Shown piece after piece: positions 1 to 62,084 of a DNA stretch of 64,000 nucleotides (its first letter is position 1; every line of letters begins with the position of its first letter). Under the pieces are notes generated by a model. That model was given only the letters and a program-made list of their open reading frames with translations, did no database searches and was not told the origin of the DNA. The position numbers and the translations under genes are program-made. Source of the DNA: Leptospiria bacterium (lineage in GTDB: Bacteria > Spirochaetota > Leptospiria > Turneriellales > CBDBES01); assembly GCA_965261485.1 (NCBI GenBank), contig CBDHCY010000005.1, positions 1,484,901-1,548,900 of the forward strand, in the 5' to 3' direction.

Positions 1-2055
1 GTCAATATCAAAATCATATTTAACTCCTCCCTTTTTTTGTAAGTATGCCTTTATAATTTGAGTACTTTTAATAAGATTCTCTGTTTTTTTATCTTTAAGA
101 AGAAGTTGATAGCGATACTCATCTTTTATTTTTTCGATACTCGCTGGCATGGGGCCACAAACAGACTCAACACATATCGGGGGTTCATCTTTATCAAATA
201 TTGTTTTTTGAGAAGAGTTAAATTGAATAAATTCTTCTAAGTGATTACAAAATAAACGTAACTTCTCTAAGCTCTCACACCTCAAAAGAATTCTTACAAA
301 TCTTGAATAAGGTGGAAAGTTGGCGTATTTTCTCAATAGAAGCTCCTCCTTCAAAAATTCTTCATATTGATATGAAGATACTTTTTTCATAAGATCACTT
401 TCATTTTGCATCGTCTGCATAATAACCTCACCCATACTATACCTACCCGCTCTGCCAGATGCTTGAATTAAAAGCTGAGCGACTCTCTCAACAGCTCGAA
501 AATCAGGTAAGTTTAAACCAATATCGGCGTTAAGAATACCCACTAAAGTTACATTAGGTAAATCGAAGCCCTTGGCGATCATTTGTGTGCCAATTAAAAT
601 TTTAATTTTATTTTGCCTCATTGCCTCCAATACATCCACCACATAACCTTTACTTCTTGCATTATCTTGATCTAAACGAGCATACTCAACTTTAGGGAAG
701 TGAGCTTCAAGGGCATCTTCTACTTTTTGAATTCCCTTGCCCATCATGCTCAACGGTTTTTGACAAACAGCACAGTTTTTTTCAAATTGTGCTTCGTAAC
801 CACATAAATGGCATTTTACATAAAAATTTTTATGATTATGCTTGTTAAGGTTCGATCGGTGATATGTTAATGTTATTGAACATTTTTGACAAGAGATATT
901 TTTTTTGCAAGTCTCACAATATAAAAAATTACTATACCCTCGACGATTCAACAAAAGGAGAACCTGCTTATCATTTTTTAAATGTTCATCTATTTTAACT
1001 AATAGTGCCGGTGAGAAAATAGAGATACCTTCTGAGAAAATATTATGTGAGACTAAATGAATTTTAGGGAGTGGAAGTGCTGTTGCTCTTTTTTTAAGAT
1101 AGTAAATATAAATCGTTTTTTTTAATACACGTGCATAACTCTCTGCAGAAGGAGTTGCTGAGCCTAAAATTAATGTGTTGGGCTGTTTATTTTTTTTTGC
1201 GGCTTCTTTCAAACGAAACCATGCCACTGTTCGAGCATGATATTTAGGTGAGTGATTCTCTTTATAAGATATATCGTGCTCTTCATCAAGAATAATGAGC
1301 CCCAAATTCTGTACAGGGGCAAAAACTGCTGATCGAGTTCCTACGGCGAGCAAGGCTTCTCCATTTTGAAGTTTACGATACTCTCTTAATCGTTCACTTT
1401 TAGCTAAATTAGAATGTAAAACAACCATTTTTTCGCCATAATATGGCTTAAGCATCGTGACAAATTGATAAGTGAGGGCTATCTCAGGGAGTAAGAAGAT
1501 GCTCCCCACCTTTTTTTTTAAATTTTCATTAATAAGCTCTAGATAAATTCTCGTTTTACCTGAGCCAGTAATACCAAAGATTAGATGAGTAACAGGAGAT
1601 TGTTCAACGGAGACTTGTCTGGCTTGTAAAAGATTGATAATTTCTTTTTGTTCTTTAAGTAAAGGTTGCACCTTCATTTTTTCTATTGTGTTTTTTGATT
1701 CAGAGATATAGACACTTTCTCGCTTACCCGCGGGAATCATTTTAAATATCGCCTGCCCTATACTTGCGAGATAATATCGAGAGATAAATTCAGCGATAGA
1801 GAATTGTTCTTGATTTAAAATAGATTGTTGATCTATTATTTTTAATATTTCTTTTAATTGAACAACCCGAGCACCACTCTTACTTTTAAGATTGATTCGG
1901 TCTTTACTTAGTTTAAGTATTATACCTACTGTTTTAGTCTCTACTAATTCTACGTATACTCGTTGAAAAACTTGAATGGTGCTCTGCCATTTCTCAGGGA
2001 CAGCATAAGTAAAGCAGCACGGGTCTTTTTTATTAAATACAATCGTTGCCCACAT
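1..2055 (-). CDS. priA: primosomal replication protein N' (PriA helicase); the C-terminus runs off the window start
   Basis: Absent from the ORF track because there is no stop inside the window. Hand translation of the minus strand from the ATG at 2055-2053 gives MWATIVFNKKDP... It shows Walker A FGITGSGKT (about 1552-1579), helicase box LIILDEEHD (about 1273-1299), a Cys-rich zinc-binding block (CETCKK..CQKC..CHLCGY..CAVC) and a GRAGR motif. Confidence 0.85.
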   Translation of the reverse strand, partial: MWATIVFNKKDPCCFTYAVPEKWQSTIQVFQRVYVELVETKTVGIILKLSKDRINLKSKSGARVVQLKEILKIIDQQSILNQEQFSIAEFISRYYLASIGQAIFKMIPAGKRESVYISESKNTIEKMKVQPLLKEQKEIINLLQARQVSVEQSPVTHLIFGITGSGKTRIYLELINENLKKKVGSIFLLPEIALTYQFVTMLKPYYGEKMVVLHSNLAKSERLREYRKLQNGEALLAVGTRSAVFAPVQNLGLIILDEEHDISYKENHSPKYHARTVAWFRLKEAAKKNKQPNTLILGSATPSAESYARVLKKTIYIYYLKKRATALPLPKIHLVSHNIFSEGISIFSPALLVKIDEHLKNDKQVLLLLNRRGYSNFLYCETCKKNISCQKCSITLTYHRSNLNKHNHKNFYVKCHLCGYEAQFEKNCAVCQKPLSMMGKGIQKVEDALEAHFPKVEYARLDQDNARSKGYVVDVLEAMRQNKIKILIGTQMIAKGFDLPNVTLVGILNADIGLNLPDFRAVERVAQLLIQASGRAGRYSMGEVIMQTMQNESDLMKKVSSYQYEEFLKEELLLRKYANFPPYSRFVRILLRCESLEKLRLFCNHLEEFIQFNSSQKTIFDKDEPPICVESVCGPMPASIEKIKDEYRYQLLLKDKKTENLIKSTQIIKAYLQKKGGVKYDFDID

Positions 2056-2090
2056 ATTACATTTTTTTAAAGATAAAAGATAGACCTCCT

Positions 2091-2114
2091 AAAAAATTGA
2101 GTAACGATTACTCA
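2091..2114 (-). terminator. candidate intrinsic terminator downstream of paralog P1 and its tail array
   Basis: 7-bp inverted repeat TGAGTAA-cga-TTACTCA at 2098-2114. On the minus strand it is followed by a T6 run (A6 at 2091-2096 on the plus strand). The stem is short and AT-rich, so this is tentative. Confidence 0.4.
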
Positions 2115-2203
2115 TCCTATTAATAAATTTATGGATATACTGACAATGGGTTGCTAAAAATTCTTTTTGAGCGTTATCTTGCTCAAATTACCACGAACAA
2201 AGC

Positions 2204-2448
2204 CACCCATCAAATTGAAAATTCAAAGTTAAATTGAGGTTCAGCCTACTTTTTATTGTTATAGTGGCGGCATTGGCTGAGCTTCATAAGCACCCACTAA
2301 ATTCAAATTCAAATTCAAATTGAAAGTTGAAAGTGGAAAATTGAGGTTCAGCCCACCTTTTTATTGTGATAGTGGCGGCATTGGCTGAGCTTCATAAGCA
2401 CCTATCAAATTGAAAGTGGAAAATTGAGGTTCAGCCTACTTTTTATTG
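2204..2448 (-). repeat. 3'-tail cassette array A1 (a partial unit plus 2 full extra units) downstream of P1
   Basis: The motif TAGTGGCGGCATTGGCTGAGCTTCATAAGCACC recurs at about 2269 and 2369 and again as the true P1 gene end at 2449. Units are separated by CAAATT/GAAAGT-type hexamers. Confidence 0.85.
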
Positions 2449-4475
2449 TTATAGTGGCGGCATTGGCTGATACTCATAAGCACCCATGTCAATGAGAGGG
2501 CCTGCACTAGCAGACTTGCCCTTTACAATACGAGGCTTGCCGGCTAGGTCTAGGGCACCTGCTGGGAATAAAGGCGTCCCAGTAGGCCCATTACTACCCG
2601 CATCAATCGCAGGTGAACCCATCATTAAACTTAAATCATCATCGAGCGTGCCAAAAACATTATCAACACCATCGGCGTCTGCAAACAGAAGGTCATCATC
2701 AGCAGCGTCAATGTTATTACCAGTATTACCAGAAGCACAACTATTAGACCCCGTCCACCAATCGGTACTCACAGTACTATCACTACAATCTTGAATCAGG
2801 CTGTGTGAAATAGTAACTGTATCAGCAGAATCTCGATTACAAAAATTCATATTACCTTGGGGACTGCCTCCAGTACAAGCCGTCGCTGTATTGTCCCACA
2901 TAATGACATTGATCAAAATAAGACCAGAAGCGGTATTTACCATACCGCCACCGCCACCATTACTAGTGGCTGTATTGCCTGAAAAAATAACATTATTCAA
3001 AGTTACATCAGTACCATTATTACGCATACCGCCACTAGAAAAATCAGCCTTATTACCTGAGAAAATAACATTACTCAAAATAAAACGAAGACCAGTAATA
3101 ATAAATAGACCGCCTCCAGCATCATTAGACTTATTACCTGAGAAAATAACATTACTCAATGTTAAATCATCACTAGCACTACTAAACATACCGCCGCCAC
3201 CAGTAGCACTGCCAGCACTCAAACCAGCAGCACGATTACCTGAGAAAATAATATTACTTAATATTAAATTATTACCCTGTAAATTATAAAGACCGCCGCC
3301 ATTCGATCTCACTTGACCAGTACCATTTGATTGACCAGCTGTAATCGTAAACCCGTCTAAAGTTGTATTAGCCGCCCCTGTAACAACCGTATAAACATTG
3401 TTACCCTTAATATCGCTAGTAACTGTGGTGCTACCAGTCATAACTCGATTGGTCGTTTCTGTAACGCCATCAGCATTAACCGTGTCATTATTATCAATGT
3501 CACCGCTGAGAATAGTTTTATTCACCCGCCAGTTACGCTCACTTAATAAAGTATCTGCGACATCAAAACCACCATAGACCTTGACATTTGATTTCAATTG
3601 AAAAGTAGCATCTCTTCTATCAGAAGTTGTAGACGTAGGCTTATAAATACCTTTAGCCACCACAATCTTATTAGTGCCTGCAGAAGATGTTAACGCTAAG
3701 TTTAGAGAGCTATAAGCATTCGACCAACTCGTGCCATCATCCGTGCCATTCGCAGCAGCATTCACAAAAATAATTTTATCAGAGCTTTTCGTTGCTTCGA
3801 TCTCAACACCCGCGGCGTAATTATGGCTTGCATCATAAGCGAAGATTTTATAATAGTAGGCGGTGTTTACCGTTGCGGCACTAACGCCGAAATCAGAAGA
3901 ATTAGCACTCTGCACCACCTCTGAGCCACCAATATCACCACCAACCGTATATTCTTCACCAGCACTAGGCACGTCTACTATTGAGCTTGTATTTCTTAAG
4001 ATTAAAACACCAGAGAAATCAGCATCTGTCGGGTTTGCCCAAACAATCACGTTTAAGTCTCCAAAAGTAGCACCACTCACCACGGCTGGTGCCTCTGTAT
4101 CTGTTGGATCAGAATTTGTTCCACCGGGATTTGTTCCGCCGGGATTCTTGCCACCGGGATCTGTTGGGTCAGGATTTTTCCCGCCGGGCTCTATTGGCAC
4201 AGCCGGATCTTTAGCATCGTCGGAGCAAGAGACGTTAAAGGCAAAAAAAATAAGGATTAATAATAAACCTTGAGTAACCTTGAGTAACCTTGAGTAACCT
4301 TGAGTAACCTTGAGTAACCTTGAGTAACCTTGAGTAACCTTGAGTAACCTTGAGTAACCTTGAGTAACCTTGAGTAACCTTGAGTAACCTTGAGTAACCT
4401 TGAGTAACCTTGAGTAACCTTGAGTAACCTTGAGTAACCTTTGTGAGTTGATTTAAGTGCTTTTAATAGTTTCAT
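2449..4475 (-). CDS. P1: phase-variable Pmp-like / choice-of-anchor-Q-like beta-helix surface lipoprotein; leader and body currently out of frame (OFF)
   Basis: Body ORF 2449-4200 (583 aa) plus leader ORF 4257-4475 (MKLLKALKSTHK followed by repeat-encoded GYSRLLKVTQ...). Body features: lipobox segment GLLLILIFFAFNVSC|SDDAKDP readable upstream in the body frame; Pro/Gly linker PGGKNPDPTDPGG; Fn3-like block (ADFSGVLILRNT...YYYKIFAYDASHNY); repeated LSNVIFSGNxA...GGG[LM] beta-helix units; C-terminal DADGVDN..SPAIDAGS..DLAGKPRIV..IDMGAYE. The frame breaks only at the 17-unit decamer tract. Confidence 0.8.
4268..4441 (-). repeat. decamer tract, 17 perfect copies of CCTTGAGTAA (coding strand TTACTCAAGG)
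   Basis: Counted directly: units run from 4268 to 4437, then a partial CCTT. The tract lies between the ATG (4475) and the lipobox codons. Confidence 0.95.
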
Positions 4476-4479
4476 GTCT

Positions 4480-4508
4480 TCTTATCGTACACAAGGATAA
4501 TCTGTCAA
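4480..4508 (-). promoter_or_regulatory. candidate sigma70-type promoter of P1 (TTGACA-17 nt-ATAAGA, then 4 nt to the ATG)
   Basis: Minus strand reads TTGACAgattatccttgtgtacgATAAGAagacATG. The -35 is at 4508-4503 and the -10 at 4485-4480. The same architecture is conserved upstream of all five decamer-bearing paralogs. No Shine-Dalgarno sequence is visible. Confidence 0.35.
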
Positions 4509-4563
4509 TAAAAAAATGTTTTTTATAATTTATGAATACTTTGGAATTTAAAGACGTCTAATG

Positions 4564-5522
4564 AAATTCAAAGTTAAATTGAGGTTCGGCCTACTTTTTT
4601 ATTGTGATAGTGGCGGCATTGGCTGAAACCCATAAACACCCATCAAATTCAAATTCAAATTGACAATTGAAAATAGAAAATGGAAAATTGAGGTTCAGCC
4701 TACTTTTTTATTGTGATAGTGGCGGCATTGGCTGAAACCCATAAACACCCATCAAATTCAAATTCAAATTGACAATTGAAAATAGAAAATTGAGGTTCAG
4801 CCTACCTTTTTATTGTTATAGTGGCGGCATTGGCTGATACTCATAAGCACCCATCAAATAGAAAATGGAAAATTGAGGTTCAGCCTACTTTTTTATTGTG
4901 ATAGTGGCGGCATTGGCTGAGCTTCATAAGCACCCACCAAATTGACAATTGAAAATAGAAAATGGAAAATTGAGGTTCAGCCTACTTTTTTATTGTGATA
5001 GTGGCGGCATTGGCTGAGCTTCATAAGCACCCACCAAATTGACAATTGAAAATTGAGGTTCAGCCTACTTTTTTATTGTGATAGTGGCGGCATTGGCTGA
5101 GCTTCATAAGCACCCACCAAATAGAAAATGGAAAATTGAGGTTCGGCCTACCTTTTATTGTGATAGTGGCGGCATTGGCTGAGCTTCATAAGCACCCATC
5201 AAATTCAAATTCAAATTCAAATTCAAATTGAAAGTTGAAAATGGAAAATTAAAAGTTCAGCCTACTTTTTTATTGTTATAGTGGCGGCATTGCCTGAAAC
5301 CCATAAACACCCACCAAATTGAAAATTGAAAATTGAGGTTCGGCCTACCTTTTATTGTGATAGTGGCGGCATTGGCTGAGCTTCATAAGCACCCACCAAA
5401 TTGAAAATGGAAAATTGAGGTTCGGCCTACTTTTTATTGTGATAGTGGCGGCATTGCCTGAAACCCATAAACACCCACCAAATTGACAATTGAAAATTGA
5501 GGTTCAGCCTACTTTTTTATTG
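4564..5522 (-). repeat. 3'-tail cassette array A2 (10 extra units) between the P2 stop and the P1 promoter
   Basis: TAGTGGCGGCATTG starts at 4608, 4717, 4819, 4902, 4999, 5082, 5164, 5279, 5361 and 5443, and at the true gene end 5526. Unit lengths are 109, 102, 83, 97, 83, 82, 115, 82, 82 and 83 bp. Confidence 0.9.
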
Positions 5523-7446
5523 TTATAGTGGCGGCATTGGCTGAAACTCGTAAGCACCCATGTCAATGAGAGGGCCTGAACTAGCAGACTTGCCCTTTAC
5601 AATACGAGCCTTGCCGGCTAGGTCTAGGGCACCTGCTGGGAATAAAGGCGTCCCACTAGACCCATTACTACCCGCATCAATCGCAGGTGAAGTCGCCGTT
5701 AAACGTAAATCATCATCGAGCGTGCCAGCAACATTATCAACACCATCGGCGTCTGCAAACAGAGGGTCAGCGTCAATATTATTACCAGTATTACCAGAAG
5801 CACAACTATTAGCATGCCCTGATGCCCACCAATTGGTATCCGTGCTACAACCTTGAATCAGGCTGTGTGAAATAGTAACTATTCCAGAAGAACTGCCGTT
5901 GCAAAAATTAATATTACCTTTTGCTGTCCCTACAGGACAAGCTAGGGACATATTATCTGAAAAAATAACATTACTCAGTTTTAAACCAGTACCACTATTG
6001 AACAGACCGCCACCAACAGAATCAGACTTATTGCCTGAAAAAATAACGTTACTCAAAGTTGCATTAGTACTAGAATTAAAGAAACCGCCGCCAACAGTAA
6101 CAGCCCAATTGCCTGAGAAAATAACATTACTCAGTTTTAAACCAGTACCACCATTGAACAGACCGCCACCACCAAAACCGCCAGAACTATGATTACTGGC
6201 TGTATTGCCTGAGAAGATAACATTACTCAAAGTTAAATCCCCAGCAGCAGTATACATACCGCCGCCAGAATCGGCACTATTGCCTGAGAAGATAATATTA
6301 CTCAAAGTTAAATTATCACCACTACTATTATTATATATACCGCCACCAGAACTTCTACCACCACTAGAACCATTTGATAGACCAGCTGTAATCGTAAAGC
6401 CCTCTAAAGTTGTACCAGCCGCCCCTGTAACAACCGTATAAACATTGTTACCCTTAATATCGCTAGTAACTGTGGTGCTACCAGTCATAACTCGATTGGT
6501 CGTTTCTGTAACGCCATCAGCATTAACGATGTCATTATTATCAATGTCACCGCTGAGAATAGTTTTATTCACCAGCCAGTTACGCTCACTTAACGAGGCA
6601 TCTGCGACATCAAAACCACCATAGACCTTGACATTTGATTTCAATTGAAAAGTAGCACTTCTATCAGAAGTTGTAGACGTAGGCTTATAAACACCTTTAG
6701 CCACCACAATCTTATTAGTGACTGCAGAAGATGTTAACGCTGAGTTTAGAGAGCTATAAGCATTCGACCAACTCGTGCCATCACCCGTGCCACTCGCAGC
6801 AGCATTCACAAAAATAGTCTTATCAGAGCTTCTCGTTGCAGATATCTCAACACCCGCGGCGTAATTATGGCTTGCATCATAAGCGAAGATTTTATAATAG
6901 TAGGCGGTGTTTACCGTTGCGGCACTAACGCCGAAATCAGAAGAATTTGCACTCTGCACCACCTCTGAGCTACCAATATCACCACCAACCGTATATTCTT
7001 CACCAGCACTAGGCACGTCTACTATTGAGCTTGTATTTCTTAAGATTAAAACACCAGAGAAATCAGCATCTGTCGGGTTTGCCCAAACAATCACGTTTAA
7101 GTCTCCAAAAGTAGCACCACTCACCACGGCTGGTGCCTCTGTATCTGTTGAGACAGGAGTCGTTGGCATATTCGGATTTGTTCCGCCGGGATCTGTTGGG
7201 TCAGGGTTCTTTCCGCCGGGCTCTATTGGCACAGCCGGATCTTTAGCATCGTCAGAGCAAGAGACGTTAAAGGCAAAAAAAATAAGGATTAATAATAAAC
7301 CTTGAGTAACCTTGAGTAACCTTGAGTAACCTTGAGTAACCTTGAGTAACCTTGAGTAACCTTGAGTAACCTTGAGTAACCTTGAGTAACCTTGAGTAAC
7401 CTTGAGTAACCTTTTGAGTTGATTTAAGTGCTTTTAATAGTTTCAT
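5523..7446 (-). CDS. P2: phase-variable beta-helix surface lipoprotein paralog, currently OFF
   Basis: Body ORF 5523-7232 (569 aa) has the same architecture as P1. The ATG at 7446-7444 (MKLLKALKSTQK) is separated from the lipobox by an 11-unit decamer tract and is out of frame with the body. Confidence 0.8.
7300..7413 (-). repeat. decamer tract, 11 perfect copies of CCTTGAGTAA
   Basis: Counted directly: units run from 7300 to 7409, followed by CCTTTTGAG. Confidence 0.95.
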
Positions 7447-7450
7447 GTCT

Positions 7451-7479
7451 TCTTATCGTACACAAGGATAATCTGTCAA
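7451..7479 (-). promoter_or_regulatory. candidate promoter of P2 (TTGACA-17-ATAAGA)
   Basis: Identical sequence and spacing to the P1 promoter. The -10 is at 7456-7451 and the -35 at 7479-7474. Confidence 0.35.
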
Positions 7480-7534
7480 TAAAAAAATGTTTTTTATAAT
7501 TTATGAATACCTTGGAATCTAAAGACGTCTAATG

Positions 7535-8469
7535 AAATTCAAAGTTAAATTGAGGTTCAGCCTACTTTTTTATTGTGATAGTGGCGGCATTGCCTGAAAC
7601 CCATAAACACCCATCAAATTCAAATTCAAATTGACAATTAAAAATGGAAAATTAAAAGTTCAGCCTACTTTTTTATTGTTATAGTGGCGGCATTGCCTGA
7701 AACCCATAAACACCCATCAAATTCAAATTCAAATTGACAATTGAAAATAGAAAATTGAGGTTCAGCCTACCTTTTTATTATGATAGTGGCGGCATTGCCT
7801 GAAACCCATAAACACCCATCAAATTCAAATTCAAATTGACAATTGAAAATAGAAAATTGAGGTTCAGCCTACCTTTTTATTATGATAGTGGCGGCATTGG
7901 CTGAGCTTCATAAGCACCCATCAAATTGAAAGTTGAAATTGACAATTGAAAGTGGAAAATTAAAAATTCAGCCTACCTTTTTATTGTTATAGTGGCGGCA
8001 TTGCCTGAAACCCATAAACACCCATCAAATTCAAATTCAAATTCAAATTCAAATTGAAAGTTGAAAATGGAAAATTAAAAGTTCAGCCTACTTTTTTATT
8101 GTGATAGTGGCGGCATTGCCTGAAACCCATAAACACCCATCAAATTCAAATTAAAATTGACAATTGAAAGTGGAAAATTGAGGTTCAGCCTACCTTTTTA
8201 TTGTGATAGTGGCGGCATTGGCTGAGCTTCATAAGCACCTATCAAATTGAAAGTTGAAAGTGGAAAATTGAGGTTCAGCCTACTTTTTTATTGTTATAGT
8301 GGCGGCATTGGCTGAGCTTCATAAACACCCATCAAATTCAAATTCAAATTCAAATTGAAAATGGAAAATTGAGGTTCAGCCTACTTTTTATTGTTATAGT
8401 GGCGGCATTGGCTGAGCTTCATAAGCACCCACCAAATTGACAATTGAGGTTCAGCCTACCTTTTTATTG
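7535..8469 (-). repeat. 3'-tail cassette array A3 (9 extra units) between the P3 stop and the P2 promoter
   Basis: Nine copies of ATAGTGGCGGCATTG[GC]CTGA... precede the true P3 end at 8470. There are two tail alleles (GAGCTTCATAAGCACCC and GAAACCCATAAACACCC) and one hybrid (GAGCTTCATAAACACCC, about 8310). Confidence 0.9.
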
Positions 8470-10471
8470 TTATAGTGGCGGCATTGGCTGAAACTCGTAA
8501 GCACCCATGTCAATGAGAGGGCCTGCACTAGCAGACTTGCCCTTTACAATACGAGGCTTGCCGGCTAGGTCTAGGGCACCTGCTGGGAATAAAGGCGTCC
8601 CACTAGACCCATTACTACCCGCATCAATCGCAGGTGAACCCATCATTAAACTTAAATCATCATCGAGCGTGCCAAAAACATTATCAACACCATCAGCGTC
8701 TGCAAACAGAGGGTCAGCGTCAATGTTATTACCAGTATTACCAGAAGCACAACTATTAGCATGCGTTGATGCCCACCAATTGGTATCCGTGCTACAACCT
8801 TGAATCAGGCTGTGTGAAATAGTAACTGTTCCAGTAGAACTGCTGTTGCAAAAATTCATATTACCTTTTGTTGTCCCTACAGGACAATCTGAGGACATAT
8901 TATCTGAAAAAATAACATTACTCAGTTTTAAACCAGCACCACCATTAAACAGACCGCCACCAGCAGAATCAGACTTATTGCCTAAAAAAGTAACGTTACT
9001 CAAAGTTACATCCTCACCACCATTACGCATACCCCCACCAACAATCTTAGACTTATTGCCTGAGAAAATAACATTACTCAAAATTAAATCCTCACCACCA
9101 TTATTAGAGAACCCGCCGCCGCCCAAAAGGCCAGAACCATGATTACTGGCTGTATTGCCTGAAAAAATAACATTACTCAAAGTCATATTCATACCACCAC
9201 TATTATACATACCGCCGCCAGAATCGGCTAGATTGCCTGAGAAGATAATATTACTCAAAGTTACATTAGCACTACTACCACCATCATTATACAGACCGCC
9301 GCCAGCTGCAGCACTACTACTAGAACCATTTGATAGACCAGCTGTAATCGTAAAGCCCTCTAAAGTTGTATTAGACGCCCCTGTAACAACCGTATAAACA
9401 TTGTTACCCTTAATATCGCTAGTAACTGTGGTGCTACCAGTCATAACTCGATTGGTCGTTTCTGTAACGCCATCAGCATTAACCGTGTCATTATTATCAA
9501 TGTCACCGCTGAGAATAGTTTTATTCACCAGCCAGTTACGCTCACTTAATAAAGTATCTGCGACATCAAAACCACCATAGACCTTGACATTTGATTTCAA
9601 TTGAAAAGTAGCATTTCTCCCAGGAGTTGAAGACGTAGGCGTAGGCTTATAAATACCTTTAGCCACCACAATCTTATTAGTACCTGCAGAAGATGTTAAC
9701 GCTAAGTTTAGAGAGCTATAAGCATTCGACCAACTCGTGCCATCACCTGTACCACTCGCAGCAGCATTCACAAAAATAGTCTTATCAGAACTTTCTCTCG
9801 TTGCTTCGATCTCAACACCCGCGGCATAATTATGGCTTGCATCATAAGCGAAGATTTTATAATAGTAGGCGGTGCCTGCCGTTGTGGCACTAACGCCGAA
9901 ATCAGAAGAATTAGCACTCTGCACCACCTCTGAGCTACCAATATCACCACCAACCGTATATTCTACACCAGCACTAGGCACGTCTGCTATTGAGACTGTG
10001 TTTCTTAAGATTAAAACCCCAGAGAAATCAGCATCTGTCGGGTTTGCCCAAACAATCACGTTTAAGTCTCCAAAAGTAGCACCACTCACCCCAGCTGGTG
10101 CCTCTGTATCTGTTGGATCAGGAATCAACCCGCCGGGATTTTTCCCACTGGGATCTGTTGGGTCAGGGTTCTTTCCGCCGGGCTCTATTGGCACAGCCGG
10201 ATCTTTAGCATCGTCAGAGCAAGAGACGTTAAAGGCAAAAAAAATAAGGATTAATAATAAACCTTGAGTAACCTTGAGTAACCTTGAGTAACCTTGAGTA
10301 ACCTTGAGTAACCTTGAGTAACCTTGAGTAACCTTGAGTAACCTTGAGTAACCTTGAGTAACCTTGAGTAACCTTGAGTAACCTTGAGTAACCTTGAGTA
10401 ACCTTGAGTAACCTTTGAGTAACCTTTGAGTAACCTTTGTGAGTTGATTTAAGTGCTTTTAATAGTTTCAT
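8470..10471 (-). CDS. P3: phase-variable beta-helix surface lipoprotein paralog, currently OFF
   Basis: Body ORF 8470-10194 (574 aa) plus leader ORF 10229-10471 (MKLLKALKSTHKGYSKVTQRLLKV...). The leader frame ends in ...FIINPYFFCL*, which is the lipobox region read in the wrong frame. Confidence 0.8.
10262..10436 (-). repeat. decamer tract, 15 perfect copies plus two 11-bp variants (CCTTTGAGTAA)
   Basis: Counted directly: perfect units run from 10262 to 10411, with variant units at 10412-10433. Confidence 0.95.
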
Positions 10472-10475
10472 GTCT

Positions 10476-10504
10476 TCTTATCGTACACAAGGATAATCTG
10501 TCAA
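10476..10504 (-). promoter_or_regulatory. candidate promoter of P3 (TTGACA-17-ATAAGA)
   Basis: Same sequence and spacing as P1 and P2. The -10 is at 10481-10476 and the -35 at 10504-10499. Confidence 0.35.
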
Positions 10505-10756
10505 TAAAAAAATGTTTTTTATAATTTATGAATAAATGAAATGAGTAAAAAAATCAAATATAATAAAATTATATTTGATAAATTCCATGCATAAAATAAA
10601 ATGACTCGCATTATATATACTCATCTAAAATTAATCGTAAGAAAAGAGTATTTATAAAAGGAGTTAATAAAAGCGATAAAATTATCGCTTCATTAAAACT
10701 AAATTGACATAGTATTGTGATCATATTAGTTTTAATGAAGAAATAAAAGTAAATAG

Positions 10757-12787
10757 ATGCCCACTTTAAAAAAAACTAAAGAATCGTTACTCCCATGGAA
10801 AAAAGAATTTTTTAAAAATATTGGTGTTTTTGAATCATTGGGGTTGCCAAAAGAAAAAGCTCAAGAGCTTCTAAATGGTTTTTTACAACTAATCAATAAA
10901 AGAGGAATACCTAAAGTTTTAGACGTTCTTCATGATGTTTCTAAATTATCAAAATTAGGAACATATACAGAGCACGAAAAGGAAGTTAGAGGGTTTATGA
11001 GTAAATTTCTTTCGCCTTTTTTATCTAAATTTAAACTCAAAGGAGAAAAGAATCTTGAAATATTAGCACAACTGATTGGAAAATTTCCCATTACGATTGT
11101 AGCGAATCATATTAGTCATTTTGATGCTGGTGTACTATTTATGGTGCTTTATAAAGAAGGAGGTTTAGCCCGTAAATTAGCGGAAAATATGGTATTCATT
11201 GCTGGTAGGCCTGTTTTTCAAACACATTTTACCCGTGCTGCTTTAGGAATGCTTAATAGCCTTTTGGTTTGTTCTCGTAAAGATCTTGTAGATAATATGG
11301 GCGCTGCTGATATCATGACAAAAGTCAATATACATTCTTTTAGACATTCAAATAGACTCCAAAAAGAAGGCAAGATCATTGTCATATTTCCAGAAGGAAC
11401 AAGAAGTAGAACAGGTCAGTTGCTTAAATTTGTAGATACTGTTTATCATTATGTCGCCAATAAAATTGTGATTCCTATCTCTTTATCTGGAACCGATGAT
11501 GTTTTACCTCCAAATTCTTTTATCTTTAATTCAGTAGCTGGCAGTATCACGATCGATAAACCTGTTTTTATATCTAGTTCAAAAAATAAGATCCCTCCTG
11601 AATTACCTGATACAATTCATCAGATTTTCCCTACAGAAGATAAAAATAAAAAAACTTACTGTCTTGATTCTCTTGCAACGCTTATTGGAAAAAACCTAGA
11701 GATTCATCGTCATGGTGCGTATCGAAATTTATACCAAGATGACCTTAATGTAAGTGAAAAAAATGTTCTTATTCGGGTTAATAAAAAATCTAGCCAAAAT
11801 ATTGTAGTAATTGGGCATTCAAATTTTTCTACAGCGATTGCTTCTGTGCTTGCAAATAAAAAAAATGTTAATATTAAAATATTTATTCATGATAAAAAAA
11901 AGATAAATTCTTTTAATGCTGATCAGTATGATCTTGAAAACTATCCTTTTTTTAAATTACCTCCTAATATTAAATTTACTTCTGATATTGAGGCAATCAA
12001 AAAAGGAACAATTTTTATTCAAGCGGTTCAGCCATGGATGTTAGATATTTATTATGACAACTTAGTGCCTATTTTAAAAAATACTGAAGGAGCTATTATC
12101 AATGTTATGAAAGGCTTTACAAAATCTCAGTACGGACTCATTTTGTCTGATCTTGAAAAAATATATGGGTTAAAACGTAATAGATTGGTTGCTTTAGCGG
12201 GTTCTAATTATCCTGATCAAATTATGGAGAGAAAAATTACGGGTTTTGAATTAGCTGCTGGTGAGCCGAAGTTACTAAACGATTTAATTTATCTTTTTAA
12301 TACTGGTTATATCTCCACTCATCGAGCAGCTATTTCCAATGATATCAAAGGAGTTCAAATTGGTGGTTCTCTTCGCACTATTTATGCCATGTTAATTGGA
12401 ATGCTTGATGCTTATTACGAAAAAAGATTAGGCGGAAATAACGACAGCACTTTATTTCATTTATCAAATAAAATGTTTTTAGAGATGGTCACACTTGGAG
12501 TTAAAATGGGAGGTAAACGTGAAACTTTTTACGGGCTATCCGGATTAACCGACTTAATGCTTACTTGCTTTGGTTTTGATACACGAGATCGTCATTATGG
12601 CCATGAGTTTATTTTTGGTAGAGCAAATTCTCTCAAAAAATCTTCGGGAATAAGGAATCTTCAAACTTTAACACGTCTTCTAGAAACTGATATAAAAGAA
12701 TATCCCCTTTTATCGATTATCACTCAAATAATCTTAAATAAAGCAACTCCTGAGAAAGTCTTAAAAAGGATTCTTCTTTCGTACTGA
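10757..12787 (+). CDS. fusion protein: N-terminal lysophospholipid (PlsC-type) acyltransferase and C-terminal glycerol-3-phosphate dehydrogenase (GpsA)-like domain
   Basis: Acyltransferase HX4D motif NHISHFD and FPEGTRS in the N-terminal half. The C-terminal half aligns by eye with GpsA (DIKGVQIGGSLRTIYAM and GLSGLTDLMLTC..DTRDRHYG). Confidence 0.7.
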   Translation: MPTLKKTKESLLPWKKEFFKNIGVFESLGLPKEKAQELLNGFLQLINKRGIPKVLDVLHDVSKLSKLGTYTEHEKEVRGFMSKFLSPFLSKFKLKGEKNLEILAQLIGKFPITIVANHISHFDAGVLFMVLYKEGGLARKLAENMVFIAGRPVFQTHFTRAALGMLNSLLVCSRKDLVDNMGAADIMTKVNIHSFRHSNRLQKEGKIIVIFPEGTRSRTGQLLKFVDTVYHYVANKIVIPISLSGTDDVLPPNSFIFNSVAGSITIDKPVFISSSKNKIPPELPDTIHQIFPTEDKNKKTYCLDSLATLIGKNLEIHRHGAYRNLYQDDLNVSEKNVLIRVNKKSSQNIVVIGHSNFSTAIASVLANKKNVNIKIFIHDKKKINSFNADQYDLENYPFFKLPPNIKFTSDIEAIKKGTIFIQAVQPWMLDIYYDNLVPILKNTEGAIINVMKGFTKSQYGLILSDLEKIYGLKRNRLVALAGSNYPDQIMERKITGFELAAGEPKLLNDLIYLFNTGYISTHRAAISNDIKGVQIGGSLRTIYAMLIGMLDAYYEKRLGGNNDSTLFHLSNKMFLEMVTLGVKMGGKRETFYGLSGLTDLMLTCFGFDTRDRHYGHEFIFGRANSLKKSSGIRNLQTLTRLLETDIKEYPLLSIITQIILNKATPEKVLKRILLSY

Positions 12788-12804
12788 TATTTTAAAGATA
12801 AAGA

Positions 12805-13680
12805 ATGATGAGTTTAACTGGTACATTTACTGCACTTGTGACTCCCTTTAAAAAATCAGGGGATATTGATTGGAGCAGTTTTGAAAGATTAGTAAAAATT
12901 CAAGTGGAAAGTGGTATAGATGGTCTTGTTCCTTGTGGTACAACAGGAGAAAGCCCCACTTTAACTCATGATGAACACCGTGAAGTCATCGCTAAAGTAA
13001 CTACATGGGCAAAAAAAAGTAATTCAGATGTGATTATTATTGCAGGTACAGGTTCTAATTCTACGCTTGAGGCCATTGAACTCACTGAGTCGGCATCTAC
13101 CGAGGGTGCCGATTATTCACTTCAAGTAAATCCATATTATAATAAACCAACTCAGGAAGGGCTTTATCAACATTTTAAAAAAATTGCAGATGAATCAAAA
13201 ATTCCTATTGTTTTATATAATATTCCAGGAAGAACATCTGTAAAGATTGAATTTGAAACAATTAAAAATTTATCAAAACATAAAAAAATTGTTGGAATTA
13301 AAGAAGCTACAGGAGATTTGAACCTCATGACTGAAATTATAAATAATACAGAAAAAAATTTTACATTATTGTCAGGTGATGATAATTTACTTTTACCAAT
13401 TTTATCAATTGGCGGACAAGGCATCGTGAGTGTATGCTCCAATATCTTTCCAAAACAAATATGTCAAATTACACGTGATTGCCTTACTGGTAATTATAAA
13501 CGGGCTCAAGAGTCCTTTCATAAAATCTTCAATTTTTGCCAAAGTCTATTTTGTGAAACTAATCCAATACCTGTAAAATACGCACTGTCTGAAATGGGTG
13601 TTTGTGAGAATATTTTAAGATTACCACTCACACCTCTCTCAAAAAAATATGAAGATCTAATTAAAAGCCAACTTTCATGA
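12805..13680 (+). CDS. dapA: 4-hydroxy-tetrahydrodipicolinate synthase
   Basis: Typical DapA motifs: LVPCGTTGESPTLTHDEH, YNKPTQEGLYQHF and NIPGRT. Length 291 aa. Confidence 0.93.
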   Translation: MMSLTGTFTALVTPFKKSGDIDWSSFERLVKIQVESGIDGLVPCGTTGESPTLTHDEHREVIAKVTTWAKKSNSDVIIIAGTGSNSTLEAIELTESASTEGADYSLQVNPYYNKPTQEGLYQHFKKIADESKIPIVLYNIPGRTSVKIEFETIKNLSKHKKIVGIKEATGDLNLMTEIINNTEKNFTLLSGDDNLLLPILSIGGQGIVSVCSNIFPKQICQITRDCLTGNYKRAQESFHKIFNFCQSLFCETNPIPVKYALSEMGVCENILRLPLTPLSKKYEDLIKSQLS

Positions 13681-14477
13681 ATTTTGGTTTAGTAGGAGCT
13701 ATGGGAAAGATGGGGAGAACGATTTCCCATCTTTCCCACAGCTCAAAAGAACTACAATTAAATGCTGCTATAGAAAGATCAGATAATCCTTATATCGGTG
13801 AAAAATATGGTTCTTTGATTAACATTCAGCAATATGACTTCTCATTGATAACATCTGAGGAGCTTAACAAAGTTAATATTGAAGGTTTAATTGATTTTTC
13901 ATTCCCTACGTCAACATTGGTTATCCTCGAAAAAGCTTTAGAAAAGAAAATTCCTATTGTAATTGGTACAACGGGGTTCAAGCAGGAAGAAATAAAAAAA
14001 ATTAACGAGGCATCTAAACAAATTCCAATTTTACTCTCATCAAATATGTCATTAGGAGTAAATTTAATTTTCTGGCTAGTTAAAAAGGCAAGTCAAGTTT
14101 TAAAAAATTATTCATTTGATCCTGAACTTATTGAAATTCATCACAATCAAAAAAAAGATGCTCCTTCTGGAACAGCTAAAACATTAGAAGAAATTATTCT
14201 TAAAGAATATGGGTGGGATGAGAAAAGTTTATTACGTGGGAGATCAGGTCTACTGAAAGCTCGATCTGAAAAAGAATTGGGCTCACATTCTCTTAGAGGA
14301 GGAGATGTTGTTGGAGAGCACTCCACTTATTTTTTTGGTGAAGGAGAACGAATCACTCTTTCACATCAAGCAACAGATCGTAATATTTTTGCTTCAGGTG
14401 CATTAAATGCACTGATTTTTTTATCATCAAAGAATGCAGGGCTCTATAATATGCAAGATGTATTGTCTCTAACCTAA
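13677..14477 (+). CDS. dapB: 4-hydroxy-tetrahydrodipicolinate reductase
   Basis: EIHHNQKKDAPSGTA signature. ATGA start/stop overlap with dapA. Confidence 0.9.
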   Translation: MNFGLVGAMGKMGRTISHLSHSSKELQLNAAIERSDNPYIGEKYGSLINIQQYDFSLITSEELNKVNIEGLIDFSFPTSTLVILEKALEKKIPIVIGTTGFKQEEIKKINEASKQIPILLSSNMSLGVNLIFWLVKKASQVLKNYSFDPELIEIHHNQKKDAPSGTAKTLEEIILKEYGWDEKSLLRGRSGLLKARSEKELGSHSLRGGDVVGEHSTYFFGEGERITLSHQATDRNIFASGALNALIFLSSKNAGLYNMQDVLSLT

Positions 14478-14504
14478 TTTTTTCGAGTTTTAAAATATAT
14501 TTGT

Positions 14505-15824
14505 ATGAATCAGACAACATCTAGAGAGCACTTCATTATTGAAGGGAAAAATCAGATATCAGGTATCATTGAGCCTCAAGGCAATAAAAATGAAGCTCTT
14601 CCCATTTTATGTTGTAGTTTACTCAATAAAAATCAATTGAGTATATATAACATCCCCCTAATTACAGATATTCAACAATTACTTAAAATACTTAAATTTT
14701 TAGGAGCAGAGATTAAAATAATATCGAAGGAAAAGCCTTCTGAAATACAAATTAATACCTCTAATGTTCATTACTCAGATCTTCCGGCCGAATTAGTTCA
14801 GCTACTGAGAGGCTCAATTACTTTAATCGCTCCGATGCTGGCTAGATTTAAAAGAGTTGTTTTACCTAGGCCCGGTGGAGATAAAATTGGTCGCAGAAGG
14901 ATAGATACCCATCTATTAGCACTAAAAGCTTTAGGGGCTTCTGTTGAAGTTCTAAAAAATTCTTATCATCTGAAAGCAGAAAGGTTGATTGGTACATCAA
15001 TTTTATTAGATGAATGCTCTGTAACCGCTACTGAAAATACAATTATGGCCGCGGCTGTAGCGTGCGGAGAAACTATTATAGAAAATGCTGCATCAGAGCC
15101 ACATGTTCAAGGGCTTTGTAAGTTCCTTCAGAATCAGGGTGTGGATATTCGGGGTATTGGAAGTAATCAGCTTAAAATAACAGGTGTTGAAGATTATAAA
15201 AATCTGACCCCCGCAAAACATACTATTGCTCCAGATTATCTGGAGATTGGTGGTTTTATCTCTATGGCAGCTTTAACAAATGGTGAGCTTCTTATTAAGA
15301 ATGTCGTCAAACGCGACCTAAGAATGATTCAATTTGTATATCAAAAGTTAGGTATTGAAATAGAATATCGTAATTCAGATGTTTGGATTGGTAAAAATCA
15401 GATGTTAAAAATAAAATCTGATATTCATGGGGATATTCCTAAAATTGATGATGCCCCTTGGCCTGGGTTTCCTGCCGACCTAATTTCAAATGTACTCGTT
15501 ACTGCAACACAATGCCATGGTACTATGCTAATCTATGAAAAACTTTTTGAAAGTCGTCTTTTTTTTACAGATAGACTAATTAGTATGGGAGGGCGGCTGG
15601 TTCTCTGTGATCCACATCGTGTGATCACAATTGGTCCTTCAGAACTAAGTGGTTCTCGTATGGTATCGCCTGATATTAGAGCTGGAATGGCTCTGGTGAT
15701 TGCTGCCTTATGTGCAGAAGGTAAATCAGAGATTCACAATATTTTACAAATTGATCGTGGTTATGAAAATGTTGATAAAAGACTCTGTGGAATAGGAGCT
15801 AATATTCAAAGGATAAAAGAATAA
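14505..15824 (+). CDS. murA: UDP-N-acetylglucosamine 1-carboxyvinyltransferase
   Basis: GNKNEALP near the N-terminus and active-site loop LPRPGGDKIGRRRIDTH. Length 439 aa. Asp126 occupies the position of the catalytic Cys. Confidence 0.93.
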   Translation: MNQTTSREHFIIEGKNQISGIIEPQGNKNEALPILCCSLLNKNQLSIYNIPLITDIQQLLKILKFLGAEIKIISKEKPSEIQINTSNVHYSDLPAELVQLLRGSITLIAPMLARFKRVVLPRPGGDKIGRRRIDTHLLALKALGASVEVLKNSYHLKAERLIGTSILLDECSVTATENTIMAAAVACGETIIENAASEPHVQGLCKFLQNQGVDIRGIGSNQLKITGVEDYKNLTPAKHTIAPDYLEIGGFISMAALTNGELLIKNVVKRDLRMIQFVYQKLGIEIEYRNSDVWIGKNQMLKIKSDIHGDIPKIDDAPWPGFPADLISNVLVTATQCHGTMLIYEKLFESRLFFTDRLISMGGRLVLCDPHRVITIGPSELSGSRMVSPDIRAGMALVIAALCAEGKSEIHNILQIDRGYENVDKRLCGIGANIQRIKE

Positions 15825-15873
15825 ATAAAATACTTGCTTTGGGGTAATTGTTGTCGCTACCTCTACCCAACAA

Positions 15874-23141: not shown

Positions 23142-23148
23142 AATTCAA

Positions 23149-49860: not shown

Positions 49861-49982
49861 TTTTATTATCTTAATCTCTAAAAAATTATGGTAAGAATCT
49901 ATAAACTCTCTTTGACAAGTCTATTTTTTATTTTTTTATGAAAATAAATTTTTGAGTGAACCTTAAACTCTTAAGGAGCTCT

Positions 49983-50192
49983 CAAATGGAGGTTCAGCCT
50001 ACCTTTTTATTGTTATAGCGGTGGCATTGCCTGAAACTCATAAACACCCATCAAATTCAAATTGAAAGTTGAAAATGGAAAATTGAGGTTCAGCCTACTT
50101 TTTATTGTTATAGCGGCGGCATTGGCTGAGCTTCATAAGCACCCATCAAATTGAAAGTTGAAAATGGAAAATTGAAGGTTCAGATTACTTTT
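49983..50192 (-). repeat. 3'-tail cassette array A4 (2 units) downstream of P4
   Basis: Units at about 50012 (TATAGCGGTGGCATTGCCTGAAACTCATAAACACCC) and about 50108 (TATAGCGGCGGCATTGGCTGAGCTTCATAAGCACCC). Confidence 0.85.
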
Positions 50193-52212: not shown

Positions 52213-52422
52213 AAATTCAAATGGAGGTTCAGCCTACTTTTTTATTGTTATAGTGGCGGCATTGGCAGAGCTTCATAAAGCATCCACCAAATTCAAATCG
52301 AAAGTGGAAAATTGAGAGTTCAGCCTACTTTTTTATTGTTATAGCGGTGGCATTGGCTGAGCTTCATAAGCACCCATCAAATTCAAATTGAAAATTGAAA
52401 ATGGAAGGTTCAGATTACTTTT
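52213..52422 (-). repeat. 3'-tail cassette array A5 (2 units) downstream of P5
   Basis: Units at about 52248 and about 52342 (TATAGTGGCGGCATTGGCAGAGCTTCATAAAGCATCC and TATAGCGGTGGCATTGGCTGAGCTTCATAAGCACCC). Confidence 0.85.
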
Positions 52423-54404: not shown

Positions 54405-54547
54405 TAAATTCAAATGGAGGTTCAGCCTACTTTTTATTGTGATAGTGGCGGCACATTGGCTGAGCTTCATAAAGCATCCACCAAATTCAAATTGAAAGTT
54501 CAAAATGGAAAATTGAAAGTTGAGAGTTCAGAGTTCAGATTACTTTT
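54405..54547 (-). repeat. 3'-tail cassette array A6 (1 unit) downstream of P6
   Basis: One unit at about 54441 (GATAGTGGCGGCACATTGGCTGAGCTTCATAAAGCATCC), followed by hexamer-rich spacer. Confidence 0.8.
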
Positions 54548-61877: not shown

Positions 61878-61993
61878 AAAAAATTACGGTAAAATCCTAA
61901 TTATAGTAGAAATCTATAAACTCTCTTGACAAGTCTATTTTTTATTTTTTTATAAAAATAAACTTTTGAGTGAATCTCAAATTTTTTAATTAA

Positions 61994-62084
61994 ACTATTT
62001 TTTATTGTTATAGTGGCGACATTGGCTGAAACTCATAAACACCCATTAAATTGAAAGTTGAAAATTGAAAGTTCAGACTATTTT
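61994..62084 (-). repeat. 3'-tail cassette array A7 (1 unit) downstream of P7
   Basis: TATAGTGGCGACATTGGCTGAAACTCATAAACACCC at about 62008, followed by hexamer spacer. Confidence 0.8.

Follow-up and report, generated by a model that had tools for sequence, protein, structure and literature searches.

The DNA under study is a stretch of 64,000 nucleotides from a Leptospiria bacterium (contig CBDHCY010000005.1, positions 1,484,901 to 1,548,900), which is called the window throughout. It contains seven paralogous genes of a family of putative choice-of-anchor-Q lipoproteins, and directly behind the stop codon of one of them, P2, lies a tandem array made from the end of the gene itself. The sequence, an analysis with Tandem Repeats Finder (TRF) and a unit-by-unit parse revealed ten detached tail units of 82–115 bp on the minus strand, each of which comprises the last 13–14 codons of the gene with the stop codon, a 3′ flank of about 30 bp and a microsatellite rich in T. 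In P2 itself the C-terminus reads ...IDMGAYEFQPMPPL*, with the stop codon at 5525-5523 (minus strand), and it is followed by a 3′ flank of about 30 bp, CAATAAAAAAGTAGGCTGAACCTCAATTTTC, and then by a T-rich run of 6–7-nt repeats. The features of this region are as follows:

5523..7446, minus strand: gene P2, choice-of-anchor-Q lipoprotein, ATG at 7446-7444; the 569-aa open reading frame (ORF) 5523-7232 is its out-of-frame body
5479..5561, minus strand: own tail unit of P2 (unit zero), last 12 codons MGAYEFQPMPPL, stop codon 5525-5523, 3′ flank and microsatellite
4581..5478, minus strand: P2 array, ten detached tail units, non-coding (sequence, TRF, core scan, parse and ORF list)
5478-5397, minus strand: unit 1, 82 bp
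5396-5315, minus strand: unit 2, 82 bp
5314-5200, minus strand: unit 3, 115 bp
5199-5118, minus strand: unit 4, 82 bp
5117-5035, minus strand: unit 5, 83 bp
5034-4938, minus strand: unit 6, 97 bp
4937-4855, minus strand: unit 7, 83 bp
4854-4753, minus strand: unit 8, 102 bp
4752-4644, minus strand: unit 9, 109 bp
4643 to about 4581, minus strand: unit 10, which merges with a junction sequence of about 70 bp
4473..4580, minus strand: junction, family-conserved upstream block (TTGACA at 4508-4503) and ATG of the next paralog, P1 (4475-4473)

The peptides formally encoded by the units are (M/V)GAYEAQPMPPLSQ*, (M/V)GVYGFQ(A/P)MPPL(SQ)* and, in one case, MGAYEYQPMPPL*. The differences in unit length derive from the T-rich microsatellite, which is built from 6–7-nt repeats (GAATTT/CAATTT, CCATTTT, CTATTTT, CAACTTT). 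A 29-nt unit core was searched with up to three mismatches, and 28 matches were found in the window versus none in 100 shuffles; without exception the matches lie on the minus strand, directly behind a family paralog. With TRF periods of 82–115 bp, the array is a head-to-tail repeat of the minisatellite or variable-number tandem repeat (VNTR) type and formally is a minisatellite. An initial annotation of the region, made from the sequence alone, had described the array, and its coordinates, unit sequence and encoded peptides agreed with the sequence, the TRF result and the parse, as did the attribution of the length variation to the microsatellite. The unit boundaries had been proposed for a check with a tandem-repeat finder, and TRF returned the same array plus higher-order periods.

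The initial annotation had placed the array in the gap between P2 and P1. It is indeed present there, but its scope had been understated, as a similar tail array was found behind every family member in the window. The seven genes and their extra units are:

8470-10194, minus strand: gene P3, 9 extra units
8433..8508, minus strand: own tail unit of P3, stop codon 8472-8470
7545..8432, minus strand: P3 sister array, nine detached tail units of 90–115 bp
5523-7232, minus strand: gene P2, 10 extra units
2449-4200, minus strand: gene P1, 2 extra units and a 7-nt stub
2204..2487, minus strand: P1 tail region with the own unit 2487-2406, detached units 2405-2298 and 2297 to about 2211, and the closing stub ATGGGTG at 2210-2204, which adjoins the priA-side flank
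54548-56656, minus strand: family gene, 1 extra unit
54415..54481, minus strand: the one detached unit behind that gene, degenerate
52423-54315, minus strand: family gene, 2 extra units
52222..52377, minus strand: the two detached units behind that gene, the second degenerate with a 1-nt insertion
50193-51878, minus strand: family gene with a short tail, 2 extra units
49985..50146, minus strand: the two detached units behind that gene, of the long type; one in related strains
62085-63935, minus strand: family gene, 1 extra unit
61990..62046, minus strand: the one detached unit behind that gene, absent at that position in L001 and L002, two contigs introduced below

Two types of tails exist, a short one (GAYESQ*) and a long one (GAYE[FY]QPMPPL*), which equals the short one plus a 21-nt insert. 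Detached units of the long type are also present behind genes with a short tail.

The internal structure of the arrays was then compared. TRF revealed higher-order periods of 180, 197 and 279 bp in the P2 array and of 321 and 423 bp in the P3 array. Two main unit haplotypes, A (GCTTATGAAGCTCAGCC) and B (GTTTATGGGTTTCAGGC), are interleaved in both arrays, and recombinants of them occur too. The stop region (TATAAC, TATCAC, TATCAT), the A-run, GGCTG/GGCCG and CCTCAA/CTTTTAA assort semi-independently among the units, showing that the units are mosaics of a few variant sites. The two arrays differ in the frequencies of some variants:

GTG start: 7 of 10 units in the P2 array, 1 of 9 in the P3 array
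GGCCG: 4 of 10 units in the P2 array, 0 of 9 in the P3 array
TATCAT: 0 of 10 units in the P2 array, 2 of 9 in the P3 array

A distinctive 115-bp unit is common to the two arrays, and its two versions differ at only two positions. Within the P2 array the longest exact tract spans 101 bp. The longest one shared by the P2 and P3 arrays has 84 bp, and these arrays can be aligned over 549 bp at 89% identity. RecA-type recombination needs a few tens of base pairs, and the tracts shared by the arrays are well above that. In the P2-array unit 4854-4753 the variant sites of the coding part and of the stop region equal those of the real tail of P1.

For the comparison of strains, long-read contigs of the ENA metagenome ERZ26693861 with 2–4x coverage were used. 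Because their flanking housekeeping genes are 98–99% identical to the window, these contigs are taken to represent other strains of the same species. The comparison of array copy numbers between isolates, as proposed in the initial annotation, revealed differences at three loci (2 versus 3, 2 versus 1 and 1 versus 0 detached units). At the plsC-priA locus, contig L065 has one family gene versus three (P3, P2 and P1) in the window, and 3 extra units versus 2 behind P1 in the window, with flanks that are about 99% identical. The single gene of L065 is composed of a P3-like 5′ half, a patch of a third paralog and a P1-like 3′ half (90–100%). At the RNase R-sucA locus, the contigs L001 and L002 have one gene each versus three in the window, and one detached unit each versus two. 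At the 62-kb locus, the window has a detached unit, while unrelated sequence is found instead in L001 and L002. Multi-unit block duplications, mosaic units and a unit number that varies between strains show that the array grows, shrinks and shuffles. As to the origin of the array, the initial annotation had considered a by-product of unequal crossing-over, and this is well supported by the higher-order repeats of 180–423 bp, the mosaics, the exact tracts of 84–101 bp and the different unit numbers at the three loci.

The sucA locus also revealed where cassette differences between strains end, namely in the tail array. The window, L001 and L002 are identical from ATTTGAGAGCTCC onward over about 110 shared nt, and past this point L001 and L002 are near-identical to the end of their alignment. 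In contrast, the 5′ half of the terminal unit differs per strain (GAGTTT-CAGGC, GAGTAT-CAGCC and GAAGCT-CAGCC). The resident genes of L001 and L002 are different paralogs (675 versus 616 aa, 40–100% identity in patches); near-perfect identity of the two contigs stops in the promoter/leader region and resumes within the detached tail unit. In addition, a real gene tail of mixed type was found in L001 (11993-12030, gene P0004, 3x coverage of the contig). It encodes GAYEFQAE* and is composed of a long-type 5′ part, GAGTTTCAGGCA, and a short-type 3′ part, GAATAAAAAAGTGATCTGAAC, and as judged from these parts it appears to be a natural recombinant of the two tail types.

Further hints to the way in which units arise came from their borders. 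In the L066 subfamily, which has the short tail GAYESQ*, intergenic 48-bp units and units of about 100 bp are present at 1240-1480 and 3340-3580. The latter units reach back to the codons for ...DLAGNPRVVG.IDMGAYESQ* and are joined at a 5-nt microhomology, GGTGC, which is present twice in the gene end. At the priA locus of both strains ATGGGTG(C) forms the end of the tail region, and so it does behind an L137 gene that lacks extra units. As this closing stub equals the first 7–8 nt of a next unit, the tail is bracketed by a short direct repeat. Short direct repeats are the classical substrate and footprint of slipped-strand duplication. The stub argument was given little weight, however, because the sequence that follows the ATGGGTGC stub of L137 is another repeated 3′ module that is also present in L001 and L002. 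Upstream of the singleton gene in L137, a candidate for a degenerate remnant of a tail was too weak to be considered.

Additional repeated modules were observed at the 3′ ends. One of them, TAGAAG(G/A)TGG(T/C)GAATCTTG(C/T)CTT(C/T)AAGTTT, contains a small AAGAT/ATCTT hairpin and, behind some family genes, replaces or follows tail units at L137 9161-9230, at about 4580-4620 of L001 and in the equivalent stretch of L002. In the window, the sequences 49735-49972 and 61750-61989, just 3′ of the last tail unit at two loci, are about 80% similar to each other. The former lies ahead of sucA and the latter ahead of a small ORF and an OmpA-family gene, and each contains a hairpin with a T-run followed by TTGTCA...CATAAT. 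The two sequences may represent a common module of terminator and promoter at the ends of the clusters.

Does the array encode anything? In 4564-5522 no ORF of more than 34 aa was found in any of the six frames. Nine of the 19 extra units of the P2 and P3 arrays encode GVYGF, which replaces E628 and A626; in 18 family proteins E628 is invariant and A626 is conserved to at least 90%. It had been remarked initially that each unit is formally a mini-ORF, and one could imagine that mini-ORFs of 13–14 aa are translated, or that they are reinitiation stepping-stones that keep ribosomes on the mRNA. Indeed, most units have ATG or GTG at the start and a stop codon at the end. However, the apparent start is just the Met codon within the IDMGAYE motif, ATA takes its place in two extra units (8242 of the P3 array and 2405 of the P1 array), and neither the stop position nor the peptide sequence is conserved. 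The sequence ahead of the unit starts is T-rich (CAATTTG) and no purine-rich ribosome-binding site is present there, a lack that the initial annotation had already observed. Together with the nine units that break conserved residues, these results left the mini-ORF idea unsupported, and translation of the units is highly unlikely.

A second coding role would be a programmed store of alternative C-termini, in which the units are silent donors for the last 5–8 residues. It could be argued that the real tails differ (EFQPMPPL*, EYQPMPPL*, ESQ*, EGQ*, EFQAE*) and that one of them is the hybrid described above, and also that the coding part and the stop region of unit 4854-4753 match the real tail of P1 at the variant sites. 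But the commonest unit peptides (GAYEAQPMPPLSQ and GVYGFQA) are present in none of the 18 family proteins, and the units of the B type break conserved residues. Moreover, the diversity is tiny, and it affects the end of a conserved domain motif rather than the variable beta-helix region. Such a store is thus highly improbable.

The array could also act on the level of RNA. The initial annotation had named an insulator, a terminator or an upstream regulatory array as one role, and a spacer of this kind, by halting or weakening read-through from the paralog ahead or by setting the activity of the following promoter, would allow each phase-variable gene to be expressed independently. The array fills the gap from the stop codon to the next promoter, and there is no canonical terminator between the tandem genes. 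The real tails of P2 and P3 and a few units contain an 11-bp imperfect inverted repeat (GAGTTTCAGCC, a 29-nt gap and GGCTGAACCTC), which is followed by the T-rich run, and the C/G ratio is about 1.0 in the sense RNA of the array versus 0.7 in the genes. However, a consensus terminator scan yielded no match in any array, and its total count was not above that of shuffles; terminator-like hairpins were found only in the flank past the last unit of a cluster (2187-2166 in the scan, and after 49985 by eye). The folds of six units or junctions were no better than those of shuffled sequences (z from −0.9 to +0.8). The loop of the inverted repeat has 29 nt, compared to the usual 3–8, and the common unit variants CAGGC, GGCCG and GAAGCT break its stem without compensation. 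A typical Rho loading site would have a far larger excess of C over G. No Rfam match was obtained at E<=1 in 1-11000, and none at the gathering score in the whole window. In the alignment of 13 genes, the last unit of every module ends about 70 bp 5′ of the −35 box, and because this distance is constant the promoter geometry does not depend on the unit number. The proposed role in termination, insulation or regulation was therefore abandoned as very unlikely. Taken together, the array is under no constraint from a protein, an RNA structure or a terminator.

Several known types of elements were considered as well. The domain scan with Pfam and NCBIfam covered all ORFs of at least 150 aa in the window except a dapB-like ORF (13677-14477), and no recombinase, integrase or reverse transcriptase was found among the scanned ORFs. 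A shufflon or transposon was rejected on this ground. A diversity-generating retroelement was rejected due to the lack of a reverse-transcriptase domain in the scanned ORFs and due to the unit differences, which include C/T, G/A and TT/GC and are not adenine-specific. Integron attC or other site-specific sites were dismissed as the scanned ORFs include no recombinase, the units have no palindromic architecture and the 5′ module boundaries vary. In a CRISPR array unique spacers would be expected; here the units abut, their variable part is a microsatellite, and no cas domains are present in the scanned ORFs. The scan and the fold z-scores excluded an intrinsic terminator and the Rfam search a structured RNA family. 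Pattern scans of viral contigs and JGI metagenomes yielded no match and gave no indication of a mobile or phage origin of the unit.

The genes to which the arrays belong were characterized next. Three paralogs matched the choice-of-anchor Q model NF041518 of NCBIfam with 30.4–38.4 bits (curated cut-off 25 bits), and the match covers the C-terminal ...IDMGAYE motif. A weak Chlamydia-PMP repeat match was also found, and these matches fit beta-helix surface proteins. Five of the seven paralogs in the window share an upstream block with TTGACA, the protein start MKLLKALKST..., a lipoprotein-type signal peptide (...FFAFNVSC) and, within the region that encodes it, a tract of the perfect decamer AAGGTTACTC. 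The tracts are:

4266..4441, minus strand: decamer tract of P1, 17 copies, OFF
7298-7413, minus strand: decamer tract of P2, 11 copies, OFF
10260-10437, minus strand: decamer tract, 17 copies
51944-52089, minus strand: decamer tract, 14 copies
54237-54282, minus strand: decamer tract in gene 52423-54315 (630 aa), 4 copies, in frame

The reading frame is kept when the copy number n equals 1 modulo 3, and accordingly one of the five tract genes in the window is ON and four are OFF. On related contigs tracts of 0, 8, 10 and 26 copies were found; the gene is ON with 10 copies and OFF with 8 or 26, and the tract is missing from some paralogs. By its position and its frame rule, the tract is predicted to be an Opa-like frameshift switch for phase variation. 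The tail arrays would thus sit in a family of putative contingency genes that is rich in slippage-prone DNA. A database search revealed at least 16 family paralogs on the same 2.13-Mb contig. When 13 genes were aligned, each had its own upstream block and ATG, and eight had a decamer tract. A literature search in the library that could be searched yielded no paper that mentions choice-of-anchor-Q proteins, and a second one on phase variation in Leptospira yielded nothing relevant. The genes would form a previously undescribed contingency-gene family with at least 16 choice-of-anchor-Q lipoprotein paralogs, most of which have a decanucleotide switch, in an uncultured bacterium that resembles Leptospiraceae.

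Two side observations concern the same genes. Intragenic repeats of 75–81 bp are present at 2973-3199, 5957-6178, 8907-9305, 52840-53223 and 54975-55259 (the last with a period of 156 bp, that is two units). They encode beta-helix turns of about 26 residues (...LTLSNVIFSGN.A...GGG...), form the most divergent part of the genes and differ in number among paralogs. On the plus strand, each module has a sigma-70-like match (CTGTCA, 16 nt, TATAAT; 10 of 12 positions) at 4502-4529, 7473-7500 and 10498-10525. These matches point back into the upstream tail array, the third one towards plsC-gpsA, of which it could be the promoter. Overall, promoter-like matches were not more frequent than in shuffles, and the plus-strand matches may be chance in AT-rich DNA.

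The level of similarity between the paralogs is important for the question of how they exchange sequences. P1, P2 and P3 are 93–100% identical over the first 1.25 kb or so and over the last 250 bp or so, versus 40–80% in the region of the beta-helix repeats. For 15 real gene ends, identity over the last 300 coding nt averages about 64%, and the value is about 62–64% between divergent subfamilies. The non-coding motif A4-6(G)TAGNCTGAAY was readable, by inspection, in all 15 real gene ends.

From these results, it appears probable that the array is a non-coding minisatellite which arose by slippage and unequal recombination and which doubles as a 3′ homology block of the family. Units would be gained and lost by slipped-strand mispairing and by RecA-type unequal exchange between units. 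The gene-plus-array module would have been duplicated first, followed by expansion and contraction by mis-aligned exchange or replication slippage, and the short direct repeat around the tail would be a built-in substrate for slippage. The units may then serve as a family-wide 3′ homology block, the counterpart of the conserved promoter/leader block on the 5′ side, and the two blocks would enclose each gene as a cassette open to exchange. Once amplified to about 1 kb, an array would raise the chance of mis-aligned pairing with neighbouring or distant paralogs. The result would be a turnover of the repertoire, that is gain, loss and replacement of genes and an occasional change of C-terminal residues, without a dedicated recombinase. 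This assignment of a function we infer from the anatomy of the arrays and from four strain-level comparisons.

Alternatively, the arrays could be a purely neutral by-product, junk minisatellites of a slippage-prone gene end, while the exchange among paralogs runs on the similarity of the coding and promoter regions. The more than 1.2 kb at the 5′ side and the roughly 250 bp at the 3′ side that P1–P3 share at 93–100% would be enough for exchange without arrays, and the single-gene allele of L065 is explained by intragenic crossovers. Furthermore, the units carry protein-damaging changes, and their number, anywhere between 0 and 10, shows no clear optimum. On the other hand, the divergent subfamilies have only about 62–64% identity over the last 300 coding nt, and the tail and the 3′ flank are among the few stretches that they share. 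In addition, the cassette boundaries between strains lie in the terminal unit, and a hybrid real tail exists. A purely neutral array is somewhat unlikely. The opposite extreme would be that the arrays are a selected docking system for homologous recombination, in which genes are portable cassettes that loop out and re-enter other arrays. This is judged unlikely. If it were true, the length of an array would set the local rate of exchange, and a free-living or environmental lineage of Leptospiraceae would have integron-like or VSG-like repertoire dynamics without an integrase.

Several points weigh against an array that doubles as a homology block. First, the traced change from three genes to one in L065 is best explained by crossovers within the coding sequence and not within the arrays, and it follows that arrays are not required for exchange between very similar neighbours; a role of the arrays, if any, would be for divergent paralogs. 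Second, the boundary of the replacement in the tail unit is suggestive, but any replaced gene needs a boundary somewhere. Third, the evidence for a local homogenisation of arrays is weak because the mean distance between units within arrays was not significantly below that between arrays (permutation p=0.22). Fourth, small indels in the comparison contigs with their 2–4x coverage are unreliable, while differences of whole units are not plausibly read errors. Fifth, no more distant relative that carries the family was found in the scanned collections described below. The initial annotation had also proposed that the arrays are homology anchors for recombination among paralogs. Of this proposal, the resumption of cassette identity in the terminal unit and the hybrid tail stand in favour, whereas the traced three-versus-one change is best explained by crossovers in the coding region. 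The arrays as an anchor for exchange among paralogs are thus supported circumstantially.

The distribution of the family was analyzed by scanning 185,579 species genomes and also JGI metagenomes with protein patterns; the source genome and genus are absent from these collections. Only matches of at most 35% identity over most of the protein were found, and these were from other phyla; shorter best segments of them had about 50% identity. Among 138 fetched loci, the unit motif was present only in three contigs of the same species. Ten genes in the fetched loci have GAYE-like ends, and those with tail copies all belong to this species, which makes for a very small control. The relatives L063 and L064, at 72% amino-acid identity, have no family gene at the plsC locus. 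In both of them an aminotransferase gene, proS and a sigma-70 gene, in this order, immediately precede plsC-gpsA on its own strand. The P3-P2-P1 cluster is found in that place in the window, where proS and the aminotransferase gene are about 10 kb off on the other strand (10757-15824, 21366-24342). As the gene order of L063 and L064 is interrupted there in the window, a rearrangement breakpoint seems to coincide with the paralog cluster.

The rest of the window looks like an ordinary chromosome, with priA, plsC-gpsA, dapA, aroA, proS, bamA, sucA and the gene for RNase R. Among named homologues, those nearest to the PlsC-GpsA fusion protein belong to Leptospiraceae and share about 50% identity with it. 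A G+C-rich tandem array at 15866-16313 (period 47 bp, 9.6 copies, 94% matches) is unrelated to the tail arrays. It begins a few bases past the stop codon of a GLUG-motif gene of 1150 aa (16326-19778, minus strand), and its first, degenerate unit overlaps the last codons of that gene. On the minus strand, three of its units gave a better fold than shuffled sequence (z = −2.3), and no Rfam match was found. The sole gene of a nuclease or recombination type that was noticed in the window, at 20009-21181, encodes a protein of 390 aa with a PD-(D/E)XK nuclease domain (PF14281).

Variable surface-protein families usually use conserved flanking elements for moving genes or segments, as exemplified by the UHS and DHS elements of Borrelia, the Sma/Cla repeat of Neisseria and the 70-bp repeats of trypanosomes. 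In the tail arrays, the 3′ element clearly stems from the end of the gene itself and is caught while it amplifies, which may illustrate how recombination boundaries can arise by slippage alone. The practical value is modest; the arrays could be used as markers for strain typing and assembly quality, and they offer a natural test of the recombination rate versus the length of repeated homology.

The closest functional analogue of the tail units may be the UHS/DHS pair of Borrelia hermsii. In the vmp genes, the UHS of 61–62 bp is partly intragenic at the start codon, the DHS of 214 bp is extragenic, and both are crossover points (PMC6011951). A 31-bp inverted repeat of the DHS is essential, the distance of the DHS from the stop codon is variable, and one expression site is fed by silent archives (PMC6011951). 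Both systems involve a surface-lipoprotein family of a spirochaete with a conserved 5′ start/leader block and a repeated 3′ element, and in both whole genes would be exchanged by general recombination without a dedicated recombinase nearby, provided that the tail units act as crossover points. Unlike the DHS, to which it has no sequence relationship, the tail unit is derived from the last codons and the stop codon of the gene itself, is tandemly amplified up to ten times and has only a weak, non-conserved inverted repeat (11 bp and imperfect, with a 29-nt spacer). Unlike in the vmp system, every gene has its own promoter-like block and most have their own frameshift switch.

The Sma/Cla repeat of Neisseria has 66 bp, is located at the 3′ end of the pilE and pilS loci and is reported to enhance gene conversion (PMC4023411). 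Protein binding has been proposed for it, the system is built from an expression locus and silent cassettes, and a G4 element is needed as well (PMC4023411). The likeness to the tail unit, which the initial annotation had pointed out, is positional only, in that a short conserved element (a 60–65-bp core in the tail unit) is found at the 3′ end of variable surface-protein genes. In contrast to the tail units, Sma/Cla is not derived from a coding end and is not reported to form long tandem arrays. For the decamer tract, the opa genes of Neisseria are the relevant parallel, in which CTCTT repeats in the region for the leader peptide set the frame (PMC3960869). As with Opa, multiple paralogs have their own promoters, a non-triplet repeat in the signal-peptide region sets the frame and the paralogs recombine. 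The decamer AAGGTTACTC differs from the 5-nt repeat of Opa in having 10 nt and 0–26 copies. Tandem arrays derived from gene tails are not known behind opa genes.

In Trypanosoma brucei, arrays of 70-bp repeats and conserved 3′ ends bound the gene conversion of the variant surface glycoprotein (VSG) genes. The 70-bp repeats are imperfect tandem arrays with units of about 70–100 bp and an unstable AT-rich microsatellite, and they form recombination boundaries. The tail arrays resemble them as tandem arrays that contain a microsatellite and lie between members of a surface-protein family. However, the VSG repeats are eukaryotic, precede the genes and have no coding origin, and the exchange is driven by breaks in the expression site. 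With ordinary VNTR loci the tail arrays share head-to-tail units of some tens of base pairs, the polymorphism between strains and the origin from slippage or unequal exchange. They differ from them in that the unit holds the terminal codons and the stop codon of a gene, recurs at several loci behind every family member and exists in two subfamily-specific versions. Compared with all these systems, the combination of a unit that contains a stop codon, an up to tenfold amplification, subfamily-specific versions and the coexistence, in most paralogs, with an Opa-like decamer switch seems to be unusual.

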